Shown: piece after piece, positions 27,601-58,367 of the stretch | Numbering within the stretch: the first letter of the stretch is position 1 | Layout: each line of letters starts with the position of its first letter | DNA from: Candidatus Omnitrophota bacterium | GTDB lineage: Bacteria; Omnitrophota; Gorgyraeia; Gygaellales; Gygaellaceae | Reading direction: 5' to 3' | NCBI GenBank assembly: GCA_018400015.1 | Contig: JAGYNB010000001.1 | Coordinates: 6,815-70,814, forward strand | Length of the DNA stretch: 64,000 bases | Notes under the pieces: model-generated | Databases searched by the model: none | The model's input: only the letters and a program-made list of their open reading frames with translations | Told to the model about the DNA's origin: nothing | Position numbers and translations under genes: made by a program

Positions 27601-27824
27601 CTAACGTCAGCGAGGATATCGAAAACAAGAAAATCGATATTATTATAAATACTCCTATCGGCAGAGAAAGTAAATACGACGATAGCTATATCAGGAAATT
27701 AGCGATAAGGCACAAAATCCCATATATAACCACAACTGCCGCTGCTATTGCTGCAGTTAAAGGGATAGAGGATATCGCTAACGATAAAGCAGATATTAAG
27801 TGTCTACAGGATTATCATAGTTGA
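24630..27824 (+). CDS. carB: Carbamoyl-phosphate synthase large subunit
   Basis: 1064 aa. Duplicated ATP-grasp halves: [24 protein letters not shown] and [19 protein letters not shown]. C-terminal MGS-like domain. Confidence 0.95.
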   Translation: [1064 protein letters not shown]

Positions 27825-28225
27825 TGAACACAAAAAAAATTCAAATCAAAACAAAAACACAAACAGAATTTGTGGATATAACTAGAAACATTAAGGAATT
27901 TATATCCGCAAGCGGGGTCAAAGAGGGTATTTGTATTATCTATGTAGTGCATACCACAGCAGCGCTTACAATAAATGAAAATGCAGATCCTTTAGTTAAG
28001 AGAGATATTTTAAGAAAGCTGAATATGATTGTTCCTTGGGAGGATGGTTATGAGCATGCAGAAGGCAATTCTGCTGCGCACATCAAGTCTAGCATATTGG
28101 GCTTTTCGCAAAGCTTAATTATCGATAATCACGAGCTTATTTTGGGGACTTGGCAGGGGGTTTATTTTGCTGAGTTTGACGGACCAAGGACCAGAGAGGT
28201 ATTTGTTAAAATTATCGTAGGTTAA
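27821..28225 (+). CDS. yjbQ: YjbQ/UPF0047 family protein (secondary thiamine-phosphate synthase-like)
   Basis: TEFVDIT...VHTTAALTINENADP...HIKSSILG. 134 aa. Confidence 0.8.
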   Translation: MMNTKKIQIKTKTQTEFVDITRNIKEFISASGVKEGICIIYVVHTTAALTINENADPLVKRDILRKLNMIVPWEDGYEHAEGNSAAHIKSSILGFSQSLIIDNHELILGTWQGVYFAEFDGPRTREVFVKIIVG

Positions 28226-32350: not shown

Positions 32351-32661
32351 ATGGACAGCAAAAAAGCATTAGACAATATTATTAAGGAAGAGAATGATTT
32401 TACACAAAAAATAGAATTTGCAAAACAAAAGGCAAAAGCGATTGTTAATAAAGCTCGTCAGGAAAAAGAGAATATCATCAAGGAAGCGTACTCGTTAGTA
32501 AAAAATGAATCAGAAAAATTACGTAAAAAGATTTCCGACGAGACGAAAATAGAAGCCGAGTTAATAAAAAAGAAAATAAACGATCGGATAAAGGACGTTG
32601 AGGAATCAGCCAAGAAGAACCTTAACAACGCAGTAAGTTTTATAAAAAATAAACTTCGCTA

Positions 32662-32662
<1 letters not shown>
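32351..32662 (+). CDS. V/A-type ATPase small coiled-coil stator subunit (G/H-like; NtpF position)
   Basis: 103-aa Lys/Glu-rich coiled coil at the head of the ntp-type operon. Confidence 0.5.
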
Positions 32663-35125
<2,463 letters not shown>

Positions 35126-35130
35126 TAATT

Positions 35131-35541
35131 ATGTCACTGGAAAACATAATCGCACATATTCAATCCGAATCAGATAAGGAAAAACAAGCTATTTTAGATC
35201 AGGCCAAGAAAGATGAGCAGTCTATCATTGAAGAGGCTTGGGCGCAGCGAGATGAGCTTTATAAAGATCTTTTTAAGAAAGAAGAAGAAAGTATTCTTGC
35301 TGAAAAGAAACGTGTAATCGTGAATGAAAGCATAGAAGGTAAAAAAAGGATATTGAAACGTAAGCAGGAATTGATTGATGCACTTTTTCAGCAAGTGGAA
35401 AATTCTTTGAAAAAAAGCGATTTGAAGAAAAAACAAGTGTTTAATGATAAAGAAATAGATGCGCAAGAAGATGTTACAGATTTCTTGAAAAGAATTAGGT
35501 TTGAGCTGGAGCCAGAGATCGTAAAAATTTTATTTTCTTAA
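35131..35541 (+). CDS. ntpE: V/A-type ATPase subunit E (short form)
   Basis: N-terminal E-subunit-like coiled coil. Only 136 aa. Confidence 0.55.
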   Translation: MSLENIIAHIQSESDKEKQAILDQAKKDEQSIIEEAWAQRDELYKDLFKKEEESILAEKKRVIVNESIEGKKRILKRKQELIDALFQQVENSLKKSDLKKKQVFNDKEIDAQEDVTDFLKRIRFELEPEIVKILFS

Positions 35542-35556
35542 AAATAAGGGGAGTAA

Positions 35557-35718
35557 ATGTTTGATTTTTCTAAGTTGTCAGATATGACAAAATTGGCGAA
35601 CGAAGCCAAAAATTTACAGAAACAACAAGAGGGAATGCAAAAAGAGCAAATTTCGCTTTTAAAAGATATCTCTCACAAGCTCGATAAGGTTATTAGTCTT
35701 TTGGAAAAAGATGAATAA
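35557..35718 (+). CDS. Small coiled-coil ORF (54 aa) between the E and C subunits
   Basis: Strong RBS AAGGGGAG 7 nt upstream of the ATG. Absent from the >=60-aa ORF track. Overlaps the start of the C-subunit gene. Confidence 0.3.
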   Translation: MFDFSKLSDMTKLANEAKNLQKQQEGMQKEQISLLKDISHKLDKVISLLEKDE

Positions 35719-36514
35719 ATCAGCTTCGATATACGAATATGCCTATGGTGTTGGCAAGGTAAGGGCTATGGAAAGGCACCTTATTAAAGATGAGGTTTTT
35801 ATGGAGTCTGTAAGTTTAGACCTAAAGGATGCTCTGCGTCTTTTCGCTGAAACCGGTATTTTTCAGGAAGGGCTAGGTAAAATCAATACCAGCGATGAAT
35901 TAGAAAAAGTTCTAAAAAATGAAAAAGAAAATTTAGATAATTTAGCCAGTAAGCTTTTGGTTGATAAAGAGCTCATATTTCTTCTTGACGCAACAGATTT
36001 AATCAGGGCAAAGAGAGTATCGCTTAGCTACAATTTCAAGCTGTTACAGGATTTTATTATGCATATGATCGATATGAACAATATTAAGACTTTCTTAAGA
36101 AATTTTGTTTTTAAAGACAGCTTGGATAAATTACGCAGCGTGATAACAGAGTCAGGTTTTATAAATAAAAATGATTTTTTTTCTGTTTATGACAAAGAGC
36201 TGTCTTTTTTCTTGGCCAAGCTCGAATTTGTACACAGGCGATATTCTATTGTCGACTACACTTTATTCTTGAAAGACGCCATAAAACTTATAGAGGAAAA
36301 AAAGTCTTTTATCGCATTGGAAAAAGCAATTGCCGGATTTTTGATTGAAGTGTTAAGGCCGGCTAAATATCTGTGTTTTGGTCCAGAAGCAATCCTGGCT
36401 TATTATTATGCCAGGATAAATGAAATAAATTTAGTTAGATTGATAGTTTTGGCTAAACTTAACGATTTAGACAATAGCATTATAAAACAAAGACTGAACA
36501 GAACATATGCCTGA
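35711..36514 (+). CDS. ntpC: V/A-type ATPase subunit C (d-type)
   Basis: Position in the operon and a helical ~267-aa protein. Confidence 0.65.
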   Translation: MNKSASIYEYAYGVGKVRAMERHLIKDEVFMESVSLDLKDALRLFAETGIFQEGLGKINTSDELEKVLKNEKENLDNLASKLLVDKELIFLLDATDLIRAKRVSLSYNFKLLQDFIMHMIDMNNIKTFLRNFVFKDSLDKLRSVITESGFINKNDFFSVYDKELSFFLAKLEFVHRRYSIVDYTLFLKDAIKLIEEKKSFIALEKAIAGFLIEVLRPAKYLCFGPEAILAYYYARINEINLVRLIVLAKLNDLDNSIIKQRLNRTYA

Positions 36515-36827
36515 TAAAATTATAGAAAATCATAATTTTGCTATTATTGGGAGAGAAGAGGCAGTTATTTCCTTTAAGGCAATAGGATTTGACACGTATC
36601 CAATTATAAACGATAAAAGCGTGAGAGATGCAATAAAAGAAATCGTTTCAAAAGCTATTAAGATTTGTTTGGTAGAAGAAAGTTTCTTTGTAGATAACAA
36701 AGATCTTTTTATTGATTTCAAAGAAAAGACATTTCCGATCTTTGTTCCTTTTTCTGTCAAAGAATCAAAAGGGTCAATGGAAGAGCTTGTTAAGGAAATA
36801 AGGCTTAAGGCAACAGGGAAAATCTAG
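36507..36827 (+). CDS. ntpG: V/A-type ATPase subunit F
   Basis: FAIIGREEAVISFKAIGFD motif. 106 aa. Confidence 0.75.
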   Translation: MPDKIIENHNFAIIGREEAVISFKAIGFDTYPIINDKSVRDAIKEIVSKAIKICLVEESFFVDNKDLFIDFKEKTFPIFVPFSVKESKGSMEELVKEIRLKATGKI

Positions 36828-36859
36828 TTAATGTTTACAGGTAAAATTAATAGGAGTAT

Positions 36860-38617
36860 TTGATGAGTAAGAAATCAAAGATTGTAAAAGTGGCCGGTCC
36901 TTTGGTTATTGCCTCAGGTTGTAGAGGCGCAAGGATGTTTGATTTGGTAAGGGTGTCTGATAAAAATTTGGTTGGTGAGATAATCGAACTTAAGTCAGAC
37001 AAGGCTTATATTCAGGTATATGAAGAAACAAGCGGTATCGGGCCGGGAGAAAATGTAGAGCTTATTAATAGCCCGTTAACTGTAGAATTGGGTCCGGGTC
37101 TTTTAGGTTCGATTTATGATGGAGTGCAAAGGCCTTTGGATAAAATAAGTTTAAAGTATGGAGATTTTATTCCTAGAGGCGTAGAGTTCAGTGCTTTGGA
37201 TTATGAGAAAAAATGGCATTTTAGACCGATTGCTAAAAAAGGCGATCACATTGGGCCAGGAGATATATTAGGAGAAGTAGATGAAACAGTTTTGATTAAG
37301 CATAAAATTATGGTTCCTGCTTCTGTGGAAGGTAAGATCGTTGAGATAGCAGAGGGAGATTTTAACATAAAAGAAAAAATTGCTTTGGTTAATAATAAAG
37401 ATAAAGATATTTCTATAAGTATGTCTTCTAAATGGCCTGTGAGAAATCCAAAGCCATTTAAGAAAAAGTTTTCGCCCAGCGTTCCTTTGACTACCGGTCA
37501 ACGGGTAATCGATACTTTCTTTCCGATGACAAAAGGAGGGACTGCCTGTATTCCCGGGCCATTTGGAGCAGGCAAAACCGTTACTATGCATGAGGTGGCT
37601 AAGTGGTCAGATGCAGATATTATTGTTTATATTGCCTGCGGAGAAAGAGGAAACGAATGCGCAGATCTTTTATTGAGTTTTCCAGAGTTAAAAGATCCGC
37701 GTACCGGAAGGCCTTTACTAGAGCGCACTGTGGTTATTGCTAACACATCGAACATGCCAGTTGCCGCAAGGGAAGCTTCAGTTTATACAGGGATAACCAT
37801 AGCCGAATATTACAGAGATATGGGTTATAATGTGGCAATAATGGCTGATTCTACATCGCGTTGGGCAGAGGCGTTACGTGAAATATCCGGTCGTCTTGAA
37901 GAAATGCCCGGAGAAGAAGGATACCCGGCGTATTTATCCAGTCGTTTAGCACAATTCTATGAAAGAGCGGGTTCTGTAGAGTGTTTGGGGTCGGATAGAA
38001 GAAAAGGCACTTTAAGCATTATGGGTGCGGTATCTCCTCCAGGTGGTGATTTGTCTGATCCGGTTGTCCAAGCAACCTTAAGAGTGGTTAAGGTTTTCTG
38101 GGGGTTGGATGAAAAGTTGGCCCATGCAAGACATTTTCCGGCGATAAACTGGCTGGAGAGCTATTCATTGTACCACGATAATTTAAGAGAATTTATTAAA
38201 AATAATATTTCTCAAGATCAGATTGATTTGAAAATAGAGGCTATGCGGTTATTGGGAGAGGAGAGTTCTCTTCTAGAAATTGCGCGTTTGGTAGGAATCG
38301 ATTCTTTGTCATTCGAAGATAGACTTATTCTGGAGGTAGCAAAGTCAATAAGAGAAGATTTTTTGCATCAAAACGCATTTCACGAAATCGATACATACAC
38401 CTCTTTAATTAAGCAGCACAGGATACTAAAAGTAATTATGCTATTTTTTTCCTTGGCGAAAACAAAATTAAAAGAGGGCATGTCTTTTGAAGAAATTTTA
38501 AAACTCGAAGCAAAGGAAAAGATAAGCAGACTTAAATATATTGAAGAAAGCAAATTAGAAGAATTTGATAATATCGAGAAAGAGCTTAAAGAAGCTTTTG
38601 GAAAGAGCAAGGAGTAG
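36860..38617 (+). CDS. ntpA: V/A-type ATPase catalytic subunit A
   Basis: Walker [10 protein letters not shown]. Non-homologous insert region. Confidence 0.95.
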
Positions 38618-38623
38618 TTTTTT

Positions 38624-39994
38624 ATGCAAAAAGAATACTTAACGGTTAATTCAATATCAGGTCCTTTGGTTATTGTTGAAAAAACTAGGGATGTCAAATA
38701 TGCCGAACTTGTAGAGGTGGAGTTTTCAAATAATGAAATAAGACGAGGTAAAGTATTGGAGGTTCAGGAAGATAAAGCCTTAATACAGATGTTCGAGGGT
38801 ACTATTGGATTGGATGTGGAAAATTCTAAGGTTAGATTTTTAGGGCGCGTGCAGGAATTGGGGGTATCGAAGGATTTACTGGGAAGGATTTTTGACGGCG
38901 CAGGCAGGGCAAAAGATGAGGGCCCGGAGATTATTCCTGAAAAACGCCTAGATATAAACGGTAATTCGATTAATCCGTATACGAGAGATTACCCGTCAGA
39001 ATTTATTCAAACCGGGATCTCCACCATAGACTGTATGAATCCTTTAGTAAGAGGACAAAAGCTCCCTGTGTTTTCCGGAGCCGGGCTTCCTCATGCCAAA
39101 GTTAGTGCGCAAATTGCAAGGCAGGCCACAGTATTGGGCAAAAAAGATTCATTTGCGGTAGTTTTTGCTGCCATGGGTATTACTTTTGAAGAAGCAGATT
39201 TTTTTATGAAGGATTTTTATAAGACCGGGGCGATCGAGCGCAGCACTCTTTTTATCAATTTAGCCAATGACCCGGCGATTGAACGAATTTCAACCCCTCG
39301 CCTTGCATTGACCTGTGCTGAGTATCTGGCCTTTGATTTAGATATGCATGTTTTGGTAATTCTTATAGATATGTCTTTTTACTGCGAATCATTAAGAGAG
39401 GTTTCTGCTGCCAGAAAAGAGATTCCCGGTAGGCGCGGATATCCGGGGTATCTTTATACGGATCTAGCATCGCTTTATGAAAGAGCAGGGCGTATTAAAG
39501 GCAAGAAAGGTTCGATTACGCTTTTGCCTGTTTTGACCATGCCTGAAGACGACAAGACTCATCCCATACCGGATTTAACAGGGTATATTACCGAAGGGCA
39601 AATTATTATTTCACGAGAGCTTCATAGAAAAGGTATTTATCCGCCGGTAGATGTATTGCCCAGTTTGTCTCGTCTTAAAGATAAAGGAATCGGCAAGGGA
39701 AAAACCAGAGAAGATCATTCAGATGTATTAAATCAATTGTTTGCCTGTTATGCAAAAGGCAAAGAAGCAAGAGAGCTTTCCGTGATTTTAGGAGAAGCAG
39801 CGCTTTCCGATGTGGATAAAATCTATTTGCAGTTTGCCAATGAATTTGAGGAAAGTTTTGTCAAACAATCAGAGTACGAAAACCGTTCTATAGAAGAATC
39901 TCTTTCTATAGGTTGGAAATTATTGAATAAGCTTCCCTTGCAAGAACTCAAGAGGATCAGGGAAGAATATTTGGATAAATATTACAAGAAATGA
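38624..39994 (+). CDS. ntpB: V/A-type ATPase subunit B
   Basis: Typical B-subunit sequence ([21 protein letters not shown]). Confidence 0.95.
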
Positions 39995-40611
39995 TTTTAA
40001 GGGTTAATCCTAACAGAATGGAGTTGTTGCGGCTTAGGAAACGTTTGGGCCTTGCTAAAAGAGGCCACAAGCTTTTGCAGGATAAGCTTGAAGAAATGAT
40101 GCGTAGATTTTTAATCTTTATAAAAGATTTCGATGAGATCAAAGACGAGTTTACAAAAAAAACTAAAATAATTTATAATGATTTTCTTTACTCAAGAATA
40201 AATTCCTCCAAAGACGCGTTTCTAGAAAGCCTTTCTAAAATAGACACAAAGATAGACGTAGATATTTCTTCACAGCGGATAATGAATGTTGAGGTGCCTG
40301 TTTTCAATCTTCAAAAAATCGATATTTCAAAAGAATACGATTATTTTACAACCAGTGCTCAATTAGATGTTGCGCTTGACTATTCAAAAGAGTATTTGAT
40401 TACTCTTTGTAGATTAGCATCAAGCATGAAGGCTTTGGAAATTCTTGCAATTGAAATAGAGCGCACCCGCAGGCGCGTAAATGCGTTAGAATATACGCTT
40501 ATCCCTTCAATCGAGGCTACCATTAGAAATATTACTCAAAAACTTAGCGAAATCGAACGAGGCAATCTTGTTAGGTTAATGAGAGTAAAAGACATCGTAA
40601 GAAGTCATTAA
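39991..40611 (+). CDS. ntpD: V/A-type ATPase subunit D
   Basis: [15 protein letters not shown]-terminus. 206 aa. Confidence 0.85.
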
Positions 40612-40677: not shown

Positions 40678-41046
40678 ATGAGCAAGATATTGATAATAGA
40701 GGATGAATCAGATGCAGCGCGTGTAGTGTCTAAACGTCTTAAAAGTCATGGTTTTGAAGTGATGATTGCCGAAGATGCCTATCAGGGCGTGAAAATGGCC
40801 CATGAAAATAACCCTGATTTGATAGTCTTAGATCTTATGCTTCCTGCAGGAGGGGGTTTAAGCGTATTAAAAAACATAAGACTTTCTTCGCAACTACAAA
40901 ATACCCCAGTTTTAGTGCTTACCGCTTCCAAAGACGAGCCTTATAAGAAGAAAATCATTGATGAAGGTGTAGATGCTTTCATGGAAAAGCCATATGACGC
41001 AGACCAATTTATCGCAAAGGTCGTTAATCTTCTAGATAATAAATAA
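40678..41046 (+). CDS. Standalone response-regulator receiver (CheY-like)
   Basis: ILIIEDE...DLIVLDLMLP...K phospho-acceptor architecture. Confidence 0.85.
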   Translation: MSKILIIEDESDAARVVSKRLKSHGFEVMIAEDAYQGVKMAHENNPDLIVLDLMLPAGGGLSVLKNIRLSSQLQNTPVLVLTASKDEPYKKKIIDEGVDAFMEKPYDADQFIAKVVNLLDNK

Positions 41047-41050
41047 AAAA

Positions 41051-43159
41051 ATGTCTTTACTTACAGATACATTAATTAAACAAGGTTTGATTACCGCGGA
41101 ACAGCTTGAAGACGCCAAAGCCAAACAAAGGGGAGCGAAAAAGCCGATTCAAGATCTTTTGGTGGATATGGGATTTGTTACAGAAGATGACATGTTGAAA
41201 GTTTCTTCTTCGGTATTTAACCAGCCGGCAGTAGATCTAACAAATGAAAAATTAGACTCAGAAGTACTAAAACTCATTCCCTATGAATTGGCGAAGCGTT
41301 ATAGCGTATTTGCTTTAAGAAAAGAGTCCGGCCATGTAATTGTTGCCACAAGCGACGTGCAAAATGTAATAGCTTTAGATGATTTAAGGGCAATTACAAA
41401 ACAGAATATAAAAGCATTTCTTTGTAAAAAATCACAAGTAAGCGAATTTATCGAAAAAAGTTATAATTTTGACGATTCTCTTTATGACATAATGAAGAAT
41501 TTTAAGGATGATGTAAAAATTGAACTTGTTAAGACCGATAATGACGAACTGGTTTCGAATAAAAGGTATGAGAAAACATTTGAAATCTCCCCTACAGTGA
41601 GATTGACGAGCCTGATAATAAATGATGCTGTCAAAAAAAGAGCAAGCGATATACATATTGAAGCGCAAGAAAAAATCAGTAAGGTGCGTTATAGGATAGA
41701 CGGGGATCTGAGAAACATTATGGATATCCCCATAAGTATTCACGCCGGTTTAGTCAGCAGAATCAAGGTTCTATCCGGTCTTGATATAGCCGAGACCAGA
41801 AAGCCTCAAGACGGAAGAGTTAAAATATCCCTTAACGGTAAAAGAATAGATCTTAGGATATCAACCATTCCTACCTTTCATGGAGAGAAGCTTGAAATAA
41901 GAGTGCTTGATCCGGAAGAGGCAAAAATTGAACTGTCAAAAATCGGTTTTGAAGATAGTGAAAGTAAGCTTTATAAAGAAGCAATTGTTAAGCCCCAAGG
42001 GATTATTTTGATAACTGGTCCCACAGGTTCAGGTAAAACAAGTACGCTTTACGCAACACTTAATTTTATAAAATCAGAAAATAAAAATATTGTAACTATA
42101 GAAGACCCGATAGAGTATTTGATTGAAGGCGTTAATCAGATGCAGGTTAATCCCGCTAAGGACGTTACTTTTGCCAATGGTTTAAGAAGTCTTTTGCGTC
42201 AAGACCCCAATATTATATTAGTAGGAGAAATAAGAGATAAAGATACCGCTGAGATCGCTTTTAGGTCGTCTTTAACAGGACACTTGGTTTTTTCCACACT
42301 ACATACTAATAATGCAGTAAGCTCAATAACCAGGCTTTTTGATATAGGTTTGGAGCCATATTTGGTGGCTTCTTCTTTGATGATTGTTGTAGCACAACGA
42401 TTGGTAAAGCTTCTTTGTCCTGACTGTAAAGAGGAATACATTCCGGAAGAAAAAATAAAAGAAGATTTTAAAAAATACATAGACCAGCTTAAAATTGATA
42501 AGTTTTACAAGGCAAAGGGATGCCAGAAATGCGGTTATTCCGGGTATTTTGGCAGAACCGCTGTTTTCGAGGTCTTAACGATTAACGATAAGTTGAAAGA
42601 TTTAATAGTTGCAAAAAGTTCTGAAAACATGATTTTGAACGAAGCGCAAAACGCAGGATTAAATTCACTTACCTTATCAGCGATGAAAAAAGTAAAAGCG
42701 GGGATTGTTTGTATTGAGGATGTAGCAAAAATAATCGGCGTAGCAGAGAAAGACAAAATCGTTCAAAAGTCCGTGGAAACCGGAGAAAAGCTAAGAATTC
42801 TTGTTGCCGATGACGAGGAAGATTTATTGGCTTTGGTTAAAAAACGTTTAGAGGCAGCCGGGTATGAAATTATCATCTCCAGAGACGGCGAAGAGTTGGT
42901 CGAGTTGGCACATAATAAAAAACCAGATTTGATTATTACCGATGTAACTATGCCAAAACTTAACGGATACGAAGCAGTCAATGCTTTAAAGACAAGTTTA
43001 GAAACCGCCTCTATTCCAATTATTATGCTTACTGCCCGTCAAGATAAGGATAGTGAAATTAAAGGGATAGATGTTGGTGCCGATGATTATATTACCAAAC
43101 CGTTCGATAAAGATAAGTTGTTAGCAAGGATAAAAATGCTTTTGAGAAGGAAAAAGTAA
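41051..43159 (+). CDS. GspE/PilB-family secretion ATPase with C-terminal receiver domain
   Basis: N-terminal T2SSE_N domain. Walker A GPTGSGKTST. Tetracysteine CPDC...CQKCGYSGY. C-terminal REC (ILVADDEEDLL...DLIITDVTMP...K). Confidence 0.85.
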   Translation: MSLLTDTLIKQGLITAEQLEDAKAKQRGAKKPIQDLLVDMGFVTEDDMLKVSSSVFNQPAVDLTNEKLDSEVLKLIPYELAKRYSVFALRKESGHVIVATSDVQNVIALDDLRAITKQNIKAFLCKKSQVSEFIEKSYNFDDSLYDIMKNFKDDVKIELVKTDNDELVSNKRYEKTFEISPTVRLTSLIINDAVKKRASDIHIEAQEKISKVRYRIDGDLRNIMDIPISIHAGLVSRIKVLSGLDIAETRKPQDGRVKISLNGKRIDLRISTIPTFHGEKLEIRVLDPEEAKIELSKIGFEDSESKLYKEAIVKPQGIILITGPTGSGKTSTLYATLNFIKSENKNIVTIEDPIEYLIEGVNQMQVNPAKDVTFANGLRSLLRQDPNIILVGEIRDKDTAEIAFRSSLTGHLVFSTLHTNNAVSSITRLFDIGLEPYLVASSLMIVVAQRLVKLLCPDCKEEYIPEEKIKEDFKKYIDQLKIDKFYKAKGCQKCGYSGYFGRTAVFEVLTINDKLKDLIVAKSSENMILNEAQNAGLNSLTLSAMKKVKAGIVCIEDVAKIIGVAEKDKIVQKSVETGEKLRILVADDEEDLLALVKKRLEAAGYEIIISRDGEELVELAHNKKPDLIITDVTMPKLNGYEAVNALKTSLETASIPIIMLTARQDKDSEIKGIDVGADDYITKPFDKDKLLARIKMLLRRKK

Positions 43160-44758
43160 ATGGACGATAATAAGTTTTTTCAAAGCTTGATAGACGCCAT
43201 AACCTTACCTATTTTTTATAAAGATAAAAACGGTACTTACCTTGGTTGTAATAAGGCATTTGAGATGTTTTTGGACTTACCAAAAGAAAAAATCATAAAT
43301 AATACGGTTTATGATATCTCTCCAAAAGATCTTGCCAAAATTTATGAACTAAAAGATAAAGAGCTTATTGATTCAAAAGGCGTCCAGGAATATGAGTCAA
43401 GCGTTGAGCATGCCGATGGGACAAGATCAAATGTGTTATTTAAGAAGAGTATTTTCAAAGACGAAAAAGGCGATGTTTCAGGGCTTATCGGGATAATTAT
43501 TGATATCACTGATAAAAAGCAGTTTGAAAACCTGTTGGTTAATGCCGTTAATGATTGGAAGTATACTTTCGATGCTATCACCGATTCGGTATCTATAATG
43601 GATAACGATTTTAACATTGTAAAGGTAAATAAAGCATTTTTAGATTTATTTAAGCTTAAAGAAGACCAAGTTATAGGTAAAAAATGTTATGAGATAGTCC
43701 ACCGAACCAACCAACCAATAGATAATTGCCCCCATACGAAAACAATTGCAAGTAAAAAAGCAGAAGAATCAGAACTTGCTTTTTCTCTAGAGGGTCCATT
43801 TGTCAGCGTTACTACATCACCGATATTCGATAAGGATAATAATTTTAACGGTGTGGTACACATAATACACGATATTACCAAAAGAAAAAAGACCGAGAAT
43901 GAATTAAGAGAGTCCGAACAGAAATTAAAAGCAATACTTGATAATATTGAAATAGGAGTGGCTTTGATCAGCCCAGATATGGAGATAATATCGTTAAATA
44001 AAAAGATGAAAAGTTGGTTTCCGGGTATAGATGTTAGCAAAAAACCTATTTGCTATAAGGCATTTAATAATCCGCCTAGAGACGAAAAGTGCGGTTATTG
44101 CCCTACGATTTTGAGTTTAAAAGACGGGCAGGTTCATGAGGCGATTACGGAAACACCAACAGGGGAAAAGATTGTAAATTTTAGAATTGTTTCATCAGTT
44201 GTAAAAGACGAAAAGGGCAATATTATTGCAGCAATAGAGATGGTTGAAGACGTTACAAAAAGAATAAAAGCTGAAATAGCCCAGAACAGGCTTGCTTCTA
44301 TTATTGACAATTCTGAAGATGCCATAATCGGTAAAGATTTAAATGGTAATATTTTATCTTGGAACAAAGGAGCAGAGAAAATCTACGGATATACCACAGA
44401 AGAGATAATGGGTAAACATATAACCAAGATTGTGCCACCTGAGAAGGCACAGGAAATAGAAATAATTTTGGATAAAGTAAAGAAAGGCGAAAGTATTATT
44501 CGAATGGAAACAATTCGCCTGACGAAAAAGAATATGAAAATAGATGTTTCTTTGACTATCTCTCCTATAGTGGATGCAGAAAAAAAGATTATTGGAGCTT
44601 CTGTTATTACACGAGACATTACTGAACAAAAAAAGCTTGAAAAAGAGCTTAAGAAAAGAATAGATTCTTTAGAGAGATTTCAAAAAATTACTATCGGGAG
44701 AGAACTGCGCATGAAAGAACTTAAAGAGGAAATAAAAAGTCTTAAATCAAAGCCATAG
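43160..44758 (+). CDS. Multi-PAS-domain sensor protein without a recognisable output domain
   Basis: Three or four PAS repeats (e.g. IIDNSEDAIIGKDLNGNILSWNKGAEKIYGYTTEEIMGKH). Ends in a coiled coil. Confidence 0.7.
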   Translation: MDDNKFFQSLIDAITLPIFYKDKNGTYLGCNKAFEMFLDLPKEKIINNTVYDISPKDLAKIYELKDKELIDSKGVQEYESSVEHADGTRSNVLFKKSIFKDEKGDVSGLIGIIIDITDKKQFENLLVNAVNDWKYTFDAITDSVSIMDNDFNIVKVNKAFLDLFKLKEDQVIGKKCYEIVHRTNQPIDNCPHTKTIASKKAEESELAFSLEGPFVSVTTSPIFDKDNNFNGVVHIIHDITKRKKTENELRESEQKLKAILDNIEIGVALISPDMEIISLNKKMKSWFPGIDVSKKPICYKAFNNPPRDEKCGYCPTILSLKDGQVHEAITETPTGEKIVNFRIVSSVVKDEKGNIIAAIEMVEDVTKRIKAEIAQNRLASIIDNSEDAIIGKDLNGNILSWNKGAEKIYGYTTEEIMGKHITKIVPPEKAQEIEIILDKVKKGESIIRMETIRLTKKNMKIDVSLTISPIVDAEKKIIGASVITRDITEQKKLEKELKKRIDSLERFQKITIGRELRMKELKEEIKSLKSKP

Positions 44759-44771
44759 GTTAAGTTAGAAA

Positions 44772-45110
44772 ATGAGTTGTCCATATTTTAAAGATTATAC
44801 AAGAGAGTGCTGGGAAAAGATTGGCGAGCTTCCTGTGGATACGTTTTATTTTTGTGATAGTGAGAAATATATCGATTGTCCATTTTATATCAAAATTGAA
44901 AAGACTAAAAATATTTGCAAGAATGTAGATAACTGCGAGGCCTTTAAATTTTTTAAAAGCATAAATTTTGATGAATTTTTGAAAATTACTACGATTTTTT
45001 GTCTTAGCGATAATAGCATTAATTGTAAACGCTATATTTTAAAAGATTCAGGAAAAGAAGTTCCTTTAGACCTGCATCCTGACGGATCAAAAATAGAAGA
45101 GAATATATAA
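44772..45110 (+). CDS. Small Cys-rich protein (8 Cys in 112 aa)
   Basis: MSCPYF...CWEK...FCDSEKYIDCPFY...CKNVDNCEAF. Lies between the PAS protein and the kinase. Confidence 0.4.
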   Translation: MSCPYFKDYTRECWEKIGELPVDTFYFCDSEKYIDCPFYIKIEKTKNICKNVDNCEAFKFFKSINFDEFLKITTIFCLSDNSINCKRYILKDSGKEVPLDLHPDGSKIEENI

Positions 45111-47171
45111 ATGGCACAGCGCAAAACAGGCGTTAAAAGAAAAATTATTTTATTTGTATTGTTTACAGGAATAATTATATCTGTAGTTTCGCTTATTTTA
45201 AGTTTTGTAATTGCCAGCCGCACGATTAAGCAAGAAGCAGGAAGAAATTTTTCTAAGACCGCTTTTATAGTATCAAGGTATGCAAATGATATATTGATGC
45301 AGAAGGTTGAGGAAATCCGCATGCATTTAACCAGCCCTATGTGGCAGAACGCAATAAATGATCAAAATTCTGATTATGCAGGAAAGACGAACGAGGGAAT
45401 TATAAAGTTTTTAAAAGTCAATGACATCGAGTGGCTTAAAGCTAAAAAAGACAGCGGTTTTATAAAAAAATATCTTGATAACCCAATGGGTATAAGGTTA
45501 AGGAATTTAGCTAATGCAGATAATAATTTATTAGAGATCTTCTTAACCGACAGATACGGAGGTTTAGTTGCCGCAAGCAGCAAAACAAGCGATTTTTATC
45601 AAGCAGATGAATCGTGGTGGCAAAAAGCATATAATCAGGGAAAAGGGGCAGTTGTCATTGAAGATATTTCTTTTGATGAATCCGCAAGACAAATGACTTT
45701 AGATATTGCTGTTCCCTACATAGAGAATGGGGAGGTTTTAGGAGTGTGTAAGGTAGTATTGAATATACAGCAAATATTCAGCACATTAGAAACTTTGCCT
45801 TTTTTGGACACAAGCCATGTTTCAATATTGAAAAAAAGCGGACTTGTAGTTTTTCATAAAGATGTTAAACCTTTAAGCACGCATATTATTTCAGGGGACA
45901 TAATTCCACAGTGGTTGGCATCTAATAAGCTTGCAGGAGTTTTAAAAGAACACCTTGATAATCATAAGATATTTGCTTCCATAATCAGACTTGATAATCC
46001 CTTGTTGATACAAAACGGTGTTGAATGGTACGTGCTTTATGGGAAAAACCTTAAAGACGTATTTTTCCCTCAAAAGGATCTAATCTTTGGATTGATTTTA
46101 GCTTTTTTATTGACTGTTAGTTTTACTGTGCCTTTGGGGTATTATTTGGGAGGTATTTTTACAAAACCTTTATACGAGCTTCATGTTGCTACAGAAAAAA
46201 TAATTGATGGTGACTGGAATTTTAACCTAGATATAAATACTAATGATGAAATTGAACAGTTTGCTGACGACTTTAAAAATATGGTTGAGCGTTTAAAGAA
46301 TCAGCAGCTTGAAACCAGCAATGCTAGGTTTGAACTGGAAGAGTTAAATAAGAATCTTGAAAAAAAAGTAGAAGAGCGTACGAAAGAATTAAACGATGCA
46401 CAAGATGCCAGTTTAAACATATTAGAGGATTTAACTTTAGCAAAAGACAGTTTAGATAAATACTCTAAAGAATTAGAAAAGGCAATTAGGATAAAGTCCG
46501 AGTTTACTTCTATGGTTTCTCATGAGCTGAGGACTCCCTTGGCTGCTATAAAAGAAGGGATTTCTATAGTTTATGATGAAGAGACAGGTAAAATTAGCCC
46601 TGAGCAAAAAGAATTTTTGGAAATAGCCAAGCGTAATGTTGATAGATTGGCGCGTTTGATTAATGATGTGTTGGATTTTTCAAAGCTTGAGGCAGGCAAG
46701 TTAGATTTTAATATAAAAGGGAATAATATTAATGAAATTATTCAAGAAGTTCAAGATATAATGATGCCTATTGTTTCTGAAAAGGGTTTGGCTATTGAGG
46801 TAGATTTGCAAAAAGATATTCTTTTGGTTAATTTTGACAGGGATAAGATTATCCAGGTTTTGACCAATCTTGTTAATAACGCGGTTAAATTTACAGATAA
46901 AGGTAAAATTACGATTTCTAGTGTTCTAAAAGGTGATGTCTTGTTGGTTTCTGTAAAAGATACCGGTAGAGGAATTAAAAAAGAAGATTTACCTAGATTG
47001 TTCCATCAGTTTGAACAGCTTGAGAAGGGCAGCGGAAGAAAAACAGGCGGTACAGGTTTAGGTTTGGCGATAAGCAAGCAAATAATAAAAGCACATAATG
47101 GTAGTATCTGGGTAGAATCGAAATTCGGAGAAGGATCGATTTTTAATTTCACTTTACCGGTAGGAGAATAA
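45111..47171 (+). CDS. Membrane sensor histidine kinase
   Basis: N-terminal TM, a ~280-aa periplasmic sensor, second TM, HAMP, HisKA (SHELRTPL), HATPase_c (G-boxes GTGLGLAI). Confidence 0.9.
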   Translation: MAQRKTGVKRKIILFVLFTGIIISVVSLILSFVIASRTIKQEAGRNFSKTAFIVSRYANDILMQKVEEIRMHLTSPMWQNAINDQNSDYAGKTNEGIIKFLKVNDIEWLKAKKDSGFIKKYLDNPMGIRLRNLANADNNLLEIFLTDRYGGLVAASSKTSDFYQADESWWQKAYNQGKGAVVIEDISFDESARQMTLDIAVPYIENGEVLGVCKVVLNIQQIFSTLETLPFLDTSHVSILKKSGLVVFHKDVKPLSTHIISGDIIPQWLASNKLAGVLKEHLDNHKIFASIIRLDNPLLIQNGVEWYVLYGKNLKDVFFPQKDLIFGLILAFLLTVSFTVPLGYYLGGIFTKPLYELHVATEKIIDGDWNFNLDINTNDEIEQFADDFKNMVERLKNQQLETSNARFELEELNKNLEKKVEERTKELNDAQDASLNILEDLTLAKDSLDKYSKELEKAIRIKSEFTSMVSHELRTPLAAIKEGISIVYDEETGKISPEQKEFLEIAKRNVDRLARLINDVLDFSKLEAGKLDFNIKGNNINEIIQEVQDIMMPIVSEKGLAIEVDLQKDILLVNFDRDKIIQVLTNLVNNAVKFTDKGKITISSVLKGDVLLVSVKDTGRGIKKEDLPRLFHQFEQLEKGSGRKTGGTGLGLAISKQIIKAHNGSIWVESKFGEGSIFNFTLPVGE

Positions 47172-47173
47172 AA

Positions 47174-47548
47174 GTGGCAAGAAAGATATTAATTGTTGAT
47201 GATGAAGAAGATGTTTTAAAAGTTGCCAGTTACAGGATAAGGAAAATGGGGTTTGATGTAATACAGGCTATGGATGGTCAGCAATGCCTAGATATGTTAA
47301 AAAAAGATAAGCCAGATCTTATACTATTAGATTTGAGATTGCCTGTTATCGACGGAGGAGAGGTTTGTAAGAATATCAAGGCTGATGAAGACTTAAAGAA
47401 AATACCGGTAATCATCTTTACAGCCAGCACGGATAAACTTGAAGATAAAACAATTAAAATGGGAGCAGATGCTTATTTAACAAAGCCATTTGATCCGGAG
47501 AAAATGCGCTTAAAAATCAATGAGCTTTTGGGGATAGAAAATGGATAA
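47174..47548 (+). CDS. Standalone response-regulator receiver
   Basis: ILIVDDEEDVL...DLILLDLRLP. Confidence 0.85.
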   Translation: MARKILIVDDEEDVLKVASYRIRKMGFDVIQAMDGQQCLDMLKKDKPDLILLDLRLPVIDGGEVCKNIKADEDLKKIPVIIFTASTDKLEDKTIKMGADAYLTKPFDPEKMRLKINELLGIENG

Positions 47549-47933
47549 AATAAAGATTTTATTGATAGATGACGAGAAAGATTTTCTTAAGATAATCGGC
47601 TCTCGGTTAGAGAAATGGGGTTATGAATTGTTAATTGCTGAAGATGCAACTAGCGGTCTAAAACAATTTCAGGAAAATAATCCCGATATAATAATTTTGG
47701 ATTATTTAATGCCGCATGAAGACGGGCTAGAGTTGTTGAAGAAAATCAGAAGAATAAACGCAGACGTACCTGTTGTGATGTTTACTGCCTTTGCGAATAC
47801 AGAACTTATGAAGGAGACTCAGAAGTTCAATATTAGTGCATTTATTCCCAAAATGAGTGTTTATTCCGATGCCCAGGTGTCTTTAAAATCTAGCCTGGAG
47901 TTGATTGCTAACAATTTAAAAAATGAACGATAA
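47541..47933 (+). CDS. Standalone response-regulator receiver
   Basis: ILLIDDEKDFL...DIIILDYLMP. Confidence 0.85.
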   Translation: MDKIKILLIDDEKDFLKIIGSRLEKWGYELLIAEDATSGLKQFQENNPDIIILDYLMPHEDGLELLKKIRRINADVPVVMFTAFANTELMKETQKFNISAFIPKMSVYSDAQVSLKSSLELIANNLKNER

Positions 47934-48300
47934 GAGAAAAATTCTGATTGTAGACGATGAAAAGGATTTAGTCAAAACCCTTAAATTTAGGCTAGAAAAA
48001 AATAATTACGAAGTAATATATGCATATGATGGATTTGAAGGCTTGGAAAGGGCGAAAAAAGAAAACCCAGATCTTATAATTCTGGACTTAATGCTGCCGA
48101 AAAAAGATGGTTATAAGGTTTGCCGGATGCTTAAGTTCGATATAAATTACAGAGATATACCGATAATAATTCTTAGCGCGCGCAAGAAACAGGAAGATAT
48201 AGATTTGGCAATGTCATCGGGAGCAAATAAATATGTTACTAAGCCGTTTGATTTTGAAGATATTTTGAGTAAAATTAAGTTTCATTTGAAAGATAAATGA
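47923..48300 (+). CDS. Standalone response-regulator receiver
   Basis: ILIVDDEKDLV...DLIILDLMLPKKDG. Confidence 0.85.
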   Translation: MNDKRKILIVDDEKDLVKTLKFRLEKNNYEVIYAYDGFEGLERAKKENPDLIILDLMLPKKDGYKVCRMLKFDINYRDIPIIILSARKKQEDIDLAMSSGANKYVTKPFDFEDILSKIKFHLKDK

Positions 48301-53066: not shown

Positions 53067-53486
53067 ATGGCGGTTATAACCAAAAGATTTAGCCTTTCCA
53101 CAAGCGGTGATTGTGATATAATCGATATTACCGATAGGGTACAATCTGTTTTAAGCCCCTCAAACATTAAAGCCGGAATTATAAATATTTCTATTGCTGG
53201 GTCTACGGCAGCAATTACCACTTGTGAGTATGAGCCTGGCTTGGTTAAAGACTTAAAAACTTTTTTTAATAAGTATATTCCTAAGAATCATAATTATGAA
53301 CATAATAATGCCTGGGGAGATGGAAATGGCCATGCACATATATCTTCTTCGCTAGTAGGCCCTTCTAAAAGCTTTCCTTTTTTTGATAAAAAAATAAATC
53401 TCGGCACTTGGCAGCAGATTATTTTGATTGATTTTGATAGCAGATCCCGCAAAAGAGAAGTTATTGTTCAGATTGTCGGAGAATAA
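53067..53486 (+). CDS. YjbQ/UPF0047 family protein, second paralog
   Basis: DIIDITD...ISIAGSTAAITTCEYEPGL...HAHISSSLVG. Confidence 0.8.
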   Translation: MAVITKRFSLSTSGDCDIIDITDRVQSVLSPSNIKAGIINISIAGSTAAITTCEYEPGLVKDLKTFFNKYIPKNHNYEHNNAWGDGNGHAHISSSLVGPSKSFPFFDKKINLGTWQQIILIDFDSRSRKREVIVQIVGE

Positions 53487-57995: not shown

Positions 57996-58367
57996 ATGAA
58001 AAAAGAAAGCAACAGGGATTTAAATTACCAGATTAACTTTTTTGAAAAGTTGCTTCAGCGTAATCCTAATTATGTTGACGCAATGATTGCTTTAGCCGAA
58101 GCATATACAAAAAAAGGAATGTATCAAAAAGGTTTTGAAATAGATATGCGCTTATCACAAATTAAAAAACACGATCCGATAGTGCACTATAATCTTGCAT
58201 GCAGCCTGTCTCTTTTAGGTAAGATCGAAGAAGCGCTATCCGCGTTATCCAGAGCAATTTATTTAGGATATGATGATTTTGATTATATAAAGCAAGACCC
58301 AGACTTGAATAATTTACGCGAAGATAGAAGGTTCGATAAATTACTAAAGGCGGTAGCAAAAAAATGA
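57996..58367 (+). CDS. TPR-repeat protein
   Basis: Helical repeats such as AMIALAEAYTKKGMYQKG and HYNLACSLSLLGKIEEAL. Confidence 0.55.
   Translation: MKKESNRDLNYQINFFEKLLQRNPNYVDAMIALAEAYTKKGMYQKGFEIDMRLSQIKKHDPIVHYNLACSLSLLGKIEEALSALSRAIYLGYDDFDYIKQDPDLNNLREDRRFDKLLKAVAKK

Follow-up and report, generated by a model that had tools for sequence, protein, structure and literature searches.

[quoted passage not shown] Two kinds of input are known: c-di-GMP, whether acting directly (MshE) or via PilZ/FimX, and CheY-like regulators that work in trans (PilG, PixG, DrdR), whose stoichiometry and sites of contact are difficult to establish. The question is raised by a gene at 41051–43159 in the 64 kb stretch of Candidatus Omnitrophota DNA analyzed here (the window; this gene and the other features given with coordinates below lie on its + strand). 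Its product had been read, from the sequence alone, as a secretion ATPase of the GspE/PilB type joined to a response-regulator receiver and placed directly under phosphorelay control, with no pilus or T2SS partner genes nearby.

The gene starts with ATG and encodes 702 amino acids. A Pfam search recovers in this one protein the three domains proposed by the sequence-only reading, all above the curated cut-offs: MshEN (formerly T2SSE_N) at residues 57–142 (61.5 bits, E = 7.6e-17, cut-off 23.1), T2SSE at residues 180–559 (435.6 bits, E = 1.5e-130, cut-off 24.9) and Response_reg at residues 583–695 (98.6 bits, E = 3.1e-28, cut-off 30.2). An identical protein is also recorded on a 418,724-bp NCBI contig, and the same three-domain layout of about 700 aa is present in at least 119 distinct 90%-identity clusters from NCBI, JGI, ENA and Logan assemblies. 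We therefore reject, as having next to no probability, the idea that the fusion arose in assembly or gene calling or that its receiver is a degenerate pseudo-receiver with a purely structural role: four data sources yield 119 independent clusters with the same continuous reading frame, the locus of Ca. Gygaella obscura is syntenic at 87% identity, the residues of the acceptor pocket are kept in 117–119 of the 119 sequences (D588, D631, T661 and P684 in all, K683 in 118), and the AlphaFold2 (AF2) model contains a canonical receiver. No point in favor of this idea was found.

The ATPase core (N2 plus CTD, residues 181–561; 41591–42733) carries a Walker A box LITGPTGSGKTS (nt 42008–42043), the Asp box IVTIEDPIEYL, the Walker B box PNIILVGEIRDK and the His box TGHLVFSTLHTNN. 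It also contains the zinc-binding CM module CPDC-X31-CQKC (C456, C459, C491 and C494; 42416–42532). Translation confirms both the Walker A and the tetracysteine motif claimed for this protein. The core residues of all four boxes and the four zinc cysteines are invariant in the 119 family sequences. A CM module of the form CXXC-X21-40-CXXC is the mark of assembly ATPases and is missing from retraction ATPases (PMC5061722). By these motifs, the ATPase of the fusion has its catalytic elements complete and is an assembly-type enzyme. Among solved structures its closest relatives are the PilB proteins of Geobacter and Myxococcus (439–448 bits), followed by GspE (386–394 bits), with PilT at about 123 bits; the AF2-modelled core superposes on Geobacter PilB and Thermus PilF with TM scores of 0.92–0.95 and an rmsd of about 2 Å (Foldseek). 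The protein nevertheless scores below the cut-offs of both NCBIfam equivalogs, PilB (TIGR02538, 582.9 bits against 675.65) and GspE (TIGR02533, 549.0 bits against 630.25). The PilT/PilU retraction ATPases, proteins of about 350 aa without N1 domain or CM module that match TIGR01420, are a different class: the fusion has both the CM module and MshEN and reaches only 171 bits with that model (cut-off 319). The T2SSE boxes, the CM module and the N-terminal MshEN (N1E) that characterize the GspE/PilB subfamily are all present; the GspF/PilC platform and prepilin-type genes expected alongside are missing from the 64 kb window and are found next to the gene in relatives of clade A (L002, L003 and L005; see below).

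The N-terminal MshEN domain (residues 1–150; 41051–41500) is folded in the AF2 model (pLDDT about 78–90). Its four-helix scaffold is kept in the family, with hydrophobic scaffold positions 97–100% conserved. Binding of c-di-GMP by such domains was judged by the tandem 24-residue motif RLGxx(L/V/I)(L/V/I)xxG(L/V/I)(L/V/I)xxxxLxxxLxxQ and its relaxed form (Wang et al. 2016). Even the relaxed form is matched by 0 of the 119 family members: Gly-3 is absent from both 24-residue motifs in all of them, Gln-24 of motif II is kept in only three, and the substitutions are Leu/Thr for Arg/Gly in motif I, and Gln/His for Gly and, mostly, Val/Ile for Gln in motif II. On motif grounds, regulation of these proteins by c-di-GMP through MshEN is thus rejected as a predicted input.

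The C-terminal receiver (residues 582–702; 42794–43156) is intact. It has the fold and the residues of a CheY-like domain (PF00072), with five strand–helix repeats forming the (beta-alpha)5 topology in the AF2 model. The phospho-acceptor proposed within DLIITDVTMP (nt 42926–42955) is indeed in place as D631 (nt 42941–42943), accompanied by D587, D588, T661, Y680, K683 and P684. The domain stands apart from the rest of the protein on a variable, disordered linker (residues 562–581; 42734–42793), for which AF2 gives a pLDDT below 50 at residues 565–578; in the family alignment the linker is mostly 22–24 residues long, and up to 54. Across the 119 sequences the mean conservation of the receiver equals that of the ATPase core (0.73 each) and far exceeds that of the linker (mean column conservation 0.33); by this measure the receiver is under an apparent selection equal to that on the core. 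Its best NCBIfam REC match is PhoB (113.9 bits), and PDB matches are PleD, PhoP, CpxR, PrrA and PhoB. The alpha4-beta5-alpha5 sequence of the window protein (GADDYITKPF...LLARIKMLLRR) appears OmpR/PhoB-like, and the family consensus for this face (...GLDAGADDYITKPFDxDKLLARIKMLLRR, with E669, G676 and R693 invariant) is one that we take to resemble PhoB.

The surroundings of the gene are those of the signalling island that had been described. Together with one kinase and four stand-alone receivers, the fusion belongs to a tightly packed eight-gene operon (40678–48300). A 122-aa stand-alone receiver (40678–41046; Response_reg 88.1 bits), with acidic pocket, acceptor Asp, Thr and Lys, lies 4 nt upstream; most family loci, and the unfused relatives too, keep a single receiver there (L001, L004, L005, L167, L168, L171, L172, L094, L100 and L173). 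The start codon of a 532-aa sensor protein (43160–44758), with multiple PAS domains (PAS_4, PAS_9 and PAS in Pfam), a C-terminal coiled coil and no output domain, abuts the stop of the fusion gene, and comparable PAS proteins follow the fusion or the pilin genes in L004, L005 and L166. Between this gene and the kinase is encoded a conserved Cys-rich protein of 112 aa (44772–45110) without a Pfam or NCBIfam match; its counterpart at this place in L166 shares 43% identity with it, and it is found also in the Gygaella locus. The sole kinase of the island is a membrane sensor histidine kinase (45111–47171; Pfam dCache-HAMP-HisKA-HATPase_c), presumed to be the phosphodonor; in L004 and L166 a kinase of this architecture likewise lies downstream of the fusion. 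Three overlapping stand-alone receivers close the operon (47174–47548, 47541–47933 and 47923–48300; Response_reg 84–97.5 bits), all with acceptor Asp and Lys in the alignment.

The claim that no gspF/pilC, pilin or secretin genes occur in the window also stood up. Pfam searches of the window ORFs taken to be genes (100 aa or longer) gave no T2SSF/PilC, pilin, secretin, PilM/N/O or prepilin peptidase; phmmer with family-specific queries found no T2SSF or pseudopilin among all window ORFs of at least 50 aa, and a six-frame regular-expression scan of the window found no prepilin leader. The partner-free span thus covers 41 kb upstream and 21 kb downstream of the fusion. Scans of the window for promoters (38 against 28.9 ± 6.9 in shuffled sequence) and terminators (5 against 5.4) did not rise above expectation. 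A V-type ATPase operon lies 66 nt upstream, and a promoter-like site is seen in the 66-nt gap. A functional link with this operon is rejected, since the synteny is found only in the 87%-identical Gygaella locus and in no other locus.

The fusion is not peculiar to the window. The architecture is common to all of the best 120 database matches, of which nearly all that are named belong to Candidatus Omnitrophota; the closest among the matches listed is that of Ca. Gygaella obscura, whose MAG encodes MDP8259769.1 and whose locus (L004) is fully syntenic. A C-terminal REC is present in at least 78 of the best 150 representatives of 50%-identity clusters, among them proteins of Elusimicrobia, WOR-3, Deltaproteobacteria and Frankiaceae. 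A profile search of genome contigs with the family alignment (generic Walker-motif peptides; the matches listed were mostly ordinary PilB genes) likewise gave C-terminal REC fusions in MAGs of Deltaproteobacteria and Frankiaceae, as well as unfused outgroups. It is therefore an Omnitrophota-wide family that is recurrent in other phyla.

Within this family two types of locus can be distinguished. Clade A (200/200 neighbor-joining bootstraps) is a small clade, sister to or nested in the large island-type clade B that includes the window protein and is itself monophyletic in only 108 of 200 bootstraps. In clade A the gene order is fusion, T2SSF and pseudopilins, the latter with classic GFTL(V/I)E leaders and a match to T2SSG. 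For instance, in L005 the order is response regulator, fusion, T2SSF, pilins, PAS, kinase and response regulator, that is, the island of the window plus filament genes. By contrast, T2SSF is missing from all 14 fully sampled clade-B loci (including L171), in which only two-component genes surround the fusion (REC, HK, Hpt, PAS and sigma-54 response regulators; Hpt proteins follow it directly in L167 and L171); the separation from the platform genes therefore dates far back and has persisted; it is not the outcome of a recent rearrangement. A pilin-like gene still follows the fusion in one clade-B locus, L086. A close orthologue of the clade-A platform was found on no long clade-B contig, which is a weak test, and T2SSF clusters of the clade-A type number about 12–17 against more than 100 clusters of the clade-B ATPase. 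The distant REC fusions of Elusimicrobia (L169) and of L170 are orphans too. Secretin and GspC/L/M genes occur in none of the family loci examined. Overall, the absence of partners is true of the locus in the lineage of the window, not of the whole family; and since clade A retains T2SSF and pseudopilins immediately downstream, the fusion is most plausibly a filament ATPase with partners elsewhere.

Unfused relatives hint at how this arrangement may have come about. Operons of Omnitrophota (L094, L100 and L173) share with the fusion the phylum and the two-component island and run HK-REC-ATPase-T2SSF-pseudopilins, in part followed by PilM/N and PilO; their ATPases are of 538–566 aa, lack a receiver and are 40–44% identical to the fusion family, and the structural genes are present. 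L173 contains a complete filament cassette with PilM/N/O inside a signalling island whose flanks are collinear with, and 45–66% identical to, the genes around the clade-B fusion of L172. Among stand-alone receivers, the one that immediately precedes the unfused ATPases is closest to the fused receiver (44–47%). Other unfused PilB-like ATPases beside T2SSF and pilin genes (L065 and L039) are 37–40% identical to the fusion.

The reading that we favor, and hold to be on balance probable, is that of a phosphorelay-gated filament-assembly ATPase of the PilB/GspE class whose structural partners are encoded elsewhere. The ancestral locus would have been a two-component island controlling a small type-IV-filament or T2SS-like cassette, with the ATPase, a T2SSF platform, a GspG-like major pseudopilin, minor pseudopilins and possibly PilM/N/O. 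A stand-alone receiver would have stood beside the ATPase, and a receiver most closely related to this one would have become fused to the ATPase C-terminus. MshEN would have lost c-di-GMP binding, and with the receiver fused and this binding lost, phosphorylation would take over from the cyclic dinucleotide as direct input; the regulatory input of the family appears to have moved from MshEN to the receiver. In the lineage of the window the structural genes would then have left the locus, and the eight-gene operon would supply the signal: the Cache kinase may phosphorylate D631, with the PAS protein and the Cys-rich protein as likely co-sensors, while the four stand-alone receivers may compete as sinks or branches. 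Once phosphorylated, the OmpR/PhoB-type receiver could dimerize via alpha4-beta5-alpha5, and receiver pairs on a flexible tether of about 20 residues could stabilize or bias the hexamer and raise its ATPase activity, as Hcp1 fusions do (see below). The result would be a hexameric assembly ATPase gated in cis by its own C-terminal receiver, and the activated motor would power a platform whose gene lies elsewhere in the genome. In favor of this reading are the invariant assembly-type motifs, the intact and conserved receiver, the filament genes in clade A, L173 and L086, the relatedness of the fused receiver to the one beside the unfused ATPases, the missing c-di-GMP motif, the precedents in trans and the Hcp1 fusions (see below), and the T4aP components reported for the class of Gygaella. 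Against it stand the partner-free window, the clade-B loci lacking T2SSF, the long clade-B contigs on which no clade-A-type platform turned up (a weak test), the orphan fusions L169 and L170, the scores below both equivalog cut-offs and the low bootstrap of clade B. What the protein itself displays is a predicted competence for phosphorylation, from which we infer direct phosphorelay control of the ATPase; this inference is strengthened by the receiver being as conserved as the core, by the kinase and four receivers in the operon and by the loss of the c-di-GMP motif.

The orphan loci also lend themselves to a different interpretation, that the ATPase of the island-type clade no longer assembles filaments and has been repurposed as the output of a phosphorelay or as a sensor of the ATP/energy state, with a target other than a filament, or by protein–protein signalling alone. 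The 14 clade-B loci surrounded only by two-component genes, the orphan relatives in Elusimicrobia and L170, and the scarcity of clade-A-type T2SSF relative to clade-B ATPases are all in its favor; as for a precedent, M. xanthus PilB is reported to double as a signalling protein in exopolysaccharide control (PMC5544727). Against it, the zinc CM module, the Arg residues, the His box and the MshEN scaffold are invariant across the clade, and such invariance of the assembly apparatus is what continued engagement of a platform predicts. In addition, orthologous islands contain filament cassettes, one clade-B locus retains a pilin-like gene, and T4aP components are reported in 38 of 40 genomes of the class containing Gygaella. 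Moreover, the swapping of the PilB, PilT and PilU motors on one platform is established. We consider repurposing unlikely. It would be just as unlikely that in this clade of more than 100 sequence clusters a PilB-class hexameric motor is permanently uncoupled from filaments and wired into a multi-receiver phosphorelay, either as the enzymatic output or as a sensor of the ATP state; if true, this would be an unrecognized class of response regulator with a secretion-superfamily ATPase as output and a non-filament target.

Alternatively, the fusion could be an accessory, signal-specific motor that competes, only in its phosphorylated state, with a canonical, unfused PilB encoded elsewhere for the ordinary T4aP platform (PilC). 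This reading overlaps with the one that we favor and differs from it only in the platform used. It draws on the separate unfused PilB-like ATPases that Omnitrophota have beside T2SSF and pilins (L065 and L039), on T4aP clusters being near-universal in the class and on the fusion scoring nearer to PilB than to GspE. However, the partners of the family, where kept, are a dedicated set of GspG-like pseudopilins and T2SSF rather than a T4aP cluster, and a canonical PilB/PilC in the source genome is an assumption. We regard such use of the T4aP platform, which would give the cell another way of extending pili under certain conditions, as quite improbable.

In the literature searched we found no description of a REC-fused PilB/GspE; most subscription journals lay outside the scope of this search and an earlier description is possible. 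A 2024 review of PilB cofactors and the main Omnitrophota genomics papers do not mention a REC-fused motor, and Wang et al. (2016) refer to the co-occurrence of MshEN with REC in general terms only. A natural, strongly conserved 1:1 covalent fusion of receiver and motor, without a c-di-GMP site, offers a self-contained system. By the Rosetta-stone argument, it also suggests a direct action on the motor for those stand-alone receivers that, in many Omnitrophota operons, sit next to an unfused ATPase. The bacteria of this phylum are uncultivated and ultra-small, and are thought to need pili to attach to host or prey; a pilus or pseudopilus motor gated by a sensor kinase would be a place where this lifestyle might be controlled.

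The fusion can be compared with several known systems. Over residues 1–561 it has the same MshEN, N2 and CTD domains as PilB of Geobacter metallireducens/sulfurreducens (5TSG, 5TSH, 5ZFR and 6OLJ) and Myxococcus xanthus (3JC8) and as Thermus PilF, with a core identity of about 42–43% and all catalytic boxes and the zinc tetracysteine module shared. It differs from PilB in its C-terminal receiver, which is on no solved or characterized PilB compared, and in having no pilC, pilT, pilMNOPQ or pilin genes nearby in the 64 kb window. With GspE/EpsE it has in common the ATPase class and the CM zinc module, and its clade-A relatives have GspF-like and GspG-like partner genes. MshE (V. cholerae, 5HTL; P. 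aeruginosa PA14_29490) shows the same N-terminal fold of two 24-residue helical hairpins with a 5-residue spacer, but the ligand-contacting residues are gone in every member of the fusion family, which in this respect resembles the non-binder XpsE.

That a motor of this class tolerates an added C-terminal domain is illustrated by EpsE and PilB carrying an artificial Hcp1 oligomerizer (4KSR and 4KSS), which form active hexamers and are functional in vivo (PMC5061722); in the fusion, however, the added domain is natural and a phosphorylation-switchable receiver instead of a constitutive hexamer. A functional parallel is offered by the CheY-like regulators acting in trans, whose phosphorylated receivers act directly on the extension motor. 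For instance, DrdR of Xanthomonas binds PilB and PilT, raising ATPase activity, and phospho-PixG of Synechocystis binds PilB1. Among these regulators (PixG/PixH, DrdR and, in Pseudomonas, PilG/PilH) a second receiver serves as antagonist or sink; the window, too, groups several stand-alone receivers with a single kinase. The receivers of these systems are separate polypeptides, whereas that of the fusion is covalently attached at 1:1 stoichiometry, with another stand-alone receiver remaining immediately upstream.

The open reading frame at 41051..43159 (+) starts with ATG and encodes a protein of 702 aa, hereafter the fusion, in which the Pfam search finds three domains, all above the curated cut-offs: MshEN, as T2SSE_N is now called (residues 57-142, 61.5 bits), T2SSE (residues 180-559, 435.6 bits, E 1.5e-130) and Response_reg (residues 583-695, 98.6 bits, E 3.1e-28). 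The Walker A motif LITGPTGSGKTS lies at nt 42008-42043 (+), the tetracysteine motif CPDC-X31-CQKC at nt 42416-42532 (+) and the receiver motif DLIITDVTMP at nt 42926-42955 (+), which places the acceptor Asp at D631. The T2SSE_N domain, Walker-A core, tetracysteine motif and intact receiver with its phospho-acceptor, all described in the sequence-only reading, are thus confirmed. The AlphaFold2 model (mean pLDDT 84.6), based on an alignment of 119 proteins with this architecture (the Omnitrophota fusion family), consists of three folded units, namely MshEN (residues 1-150), ATPase (181-561) and a canonical (beta-alpha)5 receiver (582-701), and two disordered linkers (162-178 and 565-578). Geobacter PilB and Thermus PilF superpose on the modelled core with TM scores of 0.92-0.95 at ~2 A.

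Across the 119 family sequences the ATPase retains, without exception, Walker A, E351, E393, R395, D396, H418, several Arg and the four zinc Cys; the CXXC-X21-40-CXXC module is a mark of assembly ATPases that is missing in retraction ATPases (PMC5061722). By bit score, the fusion is nearer to T4aP PilB (448 bits with Geobacter 5ZFR, 439 with Myxococcus 3JC8) than to GspE/EpsE (386-394 bits), and far from PilT (about 123 bits). It falls under the NCBI equivalog cut-offs of both PilB (583 vs 676) and GspE (549 vs 630), and is therefore assigned to the GspE/PilB assembly-ATPase class, orthology to either named enzyme not being demonstrable.

The architecture is genuine. A 418,724-bp NCBI contig encodes an identical protein, and the best 120 database matches, drawn from NCBI, JGI, ENA and Logan assemblies, are ~700 aa long, 51-87% identical and carry the same three Pfam domains in every case. 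Nearly all named sequences among them belong to Candidatus Omnitrophota. The closest relative among the matches listed is Ca. Gygaella obscura MDP8259769.1 (87% identity; order Gygaellales, class Gorgyraeia), whose locus shows one-to-one synteny with the window over the whole interval that begins with the V-type ATPase operon and ends with PEPCK. An assembly artefact or a pseudo-receiver is consequently excluded, with a shared architecture in the 120 best matches and acceptor-pocket residues present in 114-119 of the 119 sequences. Receiver-fused ATPases also occur outside this phylum. In a HMMER scan over 1.84 billion 50%-identity representatives, where the whole Omnitrophota family collapses to essentially one, 78 of the best 150 representatives have the ATPase followed by a C-terminal receiver and 4 have an N-terminal receiver. 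Examples come from Elusimicrobia (OGS21113.1), WOR-3 (UniRef100_A0A350H7X6, annotated 'GspE') and Deltaproteobacteria and Frankiaceae MAG loci; the architecture is therefore common in databases under generic names. Other layouts are found in the representatives P0252 (1,081 aa), P0253 (1,199 aa), P0299 and P0335, among them three tandem receivers C-terminal to an ATPase, and versions in which the receiver comes first, including one ordered receiver, three MshEN-like repeats and ATPase.

In the fused receiver, D588, D631, T661 and P684 are each present in 119/119 sequences, K683 in 118, Y680 in 117 and D587 in 114 (Glu in the others), so that the receiver is not degenerate. Mean column conservation is 0.73 in the receiver, compared with 0.33 in the linker (mostly 22-24 residues, maximum 54), and 0.73 and 0.70 in the CTD and N2 of the ATPase; judged by these columns, the receiver is conserved as strongly as the catalytic core. 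Its best matches are PleD and OmpR/PhoB-class receivers, and its C-terminal sequence GADDYITKPF...LLARIKMLLRR presumably resembles the PhoB alpha4-beta5-alpha5 dimerisation region. The top stand-alone matches are receivers encoded directly upstream of unfused ATPases in three sampled loci (L094, 47%; L173, 45%; L100, 44%), whereas most other island receivers share 25-44%. As a Rosetta-stone argument, this kinship provides modest evidence that the ATPase-adjacent receiver acts on the motor.

The two-hairpin scaffold of the MshEN domain is retained throughout the family (hydrophobic positions 97-100% conserved, 5-residue spacer), but the c-di-GMP-contacting residues of V. cholerae MshE are missing: Gly-3 is found in 0/119 sequences in both motifs, Gln-24 of motif II is replaced by Val/Ile, and 0/119 fit the motif even in the relaxed form that Wang et al. 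2016 used for searching. The substitution pattern resembles that of XpsE, in which c-di-GMP binding is reported as lost (Wang et al. 2016), and we infer that the family is probably unable to bind c-di-GMP. Despite this, the organism may use c-di-GMP signalling, since a 657-aa protein at 58364-60337 (+) has at its N-terminus a PilZ domain that exceeds the cut-off (31.7 bits), followed by ~530 residues without a Pfam/NCBIfam match above cut-off.

The fusion belongs to a tightly packed eight-gene unit (gaps of at most 13 nt or small overlaps, all +). A nine-gene V-type ATPase operon (32351-40611, all +) ends 66 nt before this unit, pyrimidine biosynthesis genes also lie upstream, and a 362-nt gap follows the unit. 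Around the fusion, the unit encodes a stand-alone receiver (40678-41046), a PAS-only protein (43160-44758), a conserved Cys-rich 112-aa protein (44772-45110), a dCache-HAMP-HisKA-HATPase kinase (45111-47171) and three overlapping stand-alone receivers (47174-48300), and all five receivers keep the acceptor pocket. This bears out the signalling island proposed earlier, as well as its lack of partners: T2SSF, pilin, secretin, PilM/N/O and prepilin peptidase are absent from the 64-kb window by Pfam (ORFs of at least 100 aa judged genes), partner genes by phmmer with family-specific queries (all ORFs of at least 50 aa) and prepilin leaders by six-frame regex. The Cys-rich protein, which has no Pfam or NCBIfam family and may be a metal- or redox-sensing kinase accessory, occupies the same slot between PAS protein and dCache histidine kinase in L166 (12713-13063) and L004 (13722-14060).

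Genomic contexts, sampled for ~20 of the 119 family clusters (twenty-odd loci), fall into two types. In operon-type loci (L002/L003, corresponding to P0067, and L005, to P0118), a 402-404-aa T2SSF gene lies directly 3' of the fusion, followed by the gene of a GspG-like pseudopilin, which exceeds the cut-offs of both N_methyl (30.7 bits) and T2SSG (24.9 bits), two further genes with GFTL(V/I)E leaders and a larger leader-bearing protein. L005, ordered RR-fusion-T2SSF-pilins-PAS protein-HK-RR, corresponds to the window's island but retains the filament genes. Island-type loci (the window, L001, L004, L006, L087-L090, L092, L166-L168, L171 and L172) follow the order REC-fusion-PAS/HK/Hpt/REC and contain no platform gene; L166 has the same module as the window, with PAS, Cys-rich protein (43% identity, several cysteines aligned) and dCache kinase. 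L086 keeps a pilin-like gene (…KAFVFIELMIIVAIIAIF…) 3' of the fusion. In L167 (12133-12438) and L171 (10232-10537), a 101-aa Hpt phosphotransfer protein is encoded directly 3' of the fusion, and its neighbours include REC-HK-REC hybrid kinases as well as a sigma-54 response regulator. This arrangement points to a multi-step His-Asp-His-Asp relay as the input of the fused receiver in these lineages.

In a neighbour-joining tree of the ATPase columns (200 bootstraps, p-distance-type corrections), the family is monophyletic in 200/200 replicates, as is a 12-sequence clade A holding every operon-type member. The remaining ~105 clusters, including the window (clade B), are monophyletic in only 108/200, so that clade A could be either the sister group of these clusters or a lineage inside them; the 14 clade-B loci with fully sampled contexts are all islands. 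Unfused outgroup ATPases in L094, L095 and L100 (538-566 aa, 40-44% identical to the fusion) lie in the order HK-REC-ATPase-T2SSF-pseudopilin; since this order is shared, the simplest reading is that the operon layout came first. Among the relatives, the pair L173 and L172 is the most informative. In L173, an Omnitrophota locus, the genes for an unfused ATPase and T2SSF are joined by a GspG-like gene, three others, and genes for a PilM-PilN fusion (14118-15719; 533 aa, PilM_2 + PilN) and PilO, and a two-component island surrounds the whole set; four consecutive stand-alone receivers lie upstream of the ATPase, and no secretin is found within the 10 kb flanks. L172 contains a clade-B fusion, and its flanking signalling genes are collinear with those of L173: REC of 147/148 aa (66% identity), 499-aa REC-HK-REC hybrid (61%), REC-PAS-HK (65%), REC-GAF-HK (48%), REC of 129 aa (60%), REC (56%) and HK-REC (45%), the ATPases being 42% identical. 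Orthologous signalling islands therefore hold either a full filament cassette or a lone receiver-fused ATPase.

Several other features were observed in the window. A nitrogenase-like cluster (1945-10041, +), hosted by a fermentative Omnitrophota lineage, comprises a radical SAM/SPASM protein (1945-2979), a NifH-family ATPase (2976-3767; Fer4_NifH 254 bits), two NifD/K-like Oxidored_nitro proteins (3771-5009 and 5010-6518) and two more radical SAM/SPASM proteins (6515-7627 and 8953-10041) flanking a 275-aa protein without assigned function (8136-8963); it could be an Nfl/Cfb/Mar-type reductase system rather than a nitrogenase. The ORF at 12723-19382 (+) encodes 2,219 aa with no Pfam match at E <= 0.01; very long proteins, often flanked by pilus or secretion genes, are characteristic of Omnitrophota, especially Gygaellales. 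At 60917-63751 (+), a 944-aa protein pairs a Peptidase_M1 domain (residues 283-501) with a beta-barrel of the Omp85 superfamily at the C-terminus (666-944), which would be an unusual outer-membrane-anchored aminopeptidase architecture. Two UPF0047/YjbQ-family paralogues (27821-28225 and 53067-53486, +; 145 and 120 bits) lie 25 kb apart. The + strand carries all genes identified in 1-64000, and each of the 32 two-kb windows has a positive GC skew (0.09-0.30), in keeping with a long segment of leading strand on which gene co-orientation is extreme.

Overall, the fusion is a catalytically complete assembly-type ATPase with a phospho-competent receiver on a flexible tether; kinase and receivers are co-operonic with it, the c-di-GMP motif is lost, and the family and its signalling island are evolutionarily linked to T2SSF/pseudopilin cassettes. 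The Cache kinase would phosphorylate D631, perhaps aided in sensing by the PAS protein and the Cys-rich protein, and the four stand-alone receivers might serve as sinks or branches, in the way that PixH does for PixG. Phosphorylation would alter hexamer stability or ATP turnover. We propose that receivers of neighbouring subunits pair via a phospho-dependent alpha4-beta5-alpha5 interface, because EpsE activity rises greatly on hexamerisation, artificial C-terminal fusion of the oligomeriser Hcp1 to EpsE or PilB yields stable, more active hexamers that function in vivo, the receiver protein DrdR stimulates the PilB ATPase in trans, and PixG binds PilB only when phosphorylated. The effect could be activation or inhibition.

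Since 38/40 genomes of the class reportedly encode T4aP components, the platform could plausibly lie elsewhere in the genome. Alternatively, the motor of the island-type clade could have been repurposed and uncoupled from filaments: platform genes are absent from all 14 fully sampled clade-B loci, an old and stable condition, orphan receiver fusions exist in other phyla, and clade-A-type T2SSF clusters are far fewer than clade-B ATPase clusters. Yet every assembly-ATPase feature is invariant, and we consider such repurposing unlikely. That the fusion is an accessory, conditional motor serving an ordinary T4aP machine seems to us somewhat more doubtful still.

Our search of the full-text literature, most subscription journals being outside its reach, found no account of a receiver fused to a PilB/GspE ATPase. 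The words 'receiver' and 'fused' are absent from a 2024 review of PilB cofactors; the Omnitrophota genomics papers covered do not mention response regulators, 'two-component' being absent where searched; and Wang et al. 2016 go no further than to name REC as one of many domains found together with MshEN. What is already known are the proteins themselves, in public databases, their components, and the logic of a receiver controlling PilB in trans; the novelty lies in the conserved fusion in cis with the accompanying loss of the c-di-GMP site, and in its systematic separation from the structural genes in a large clade.
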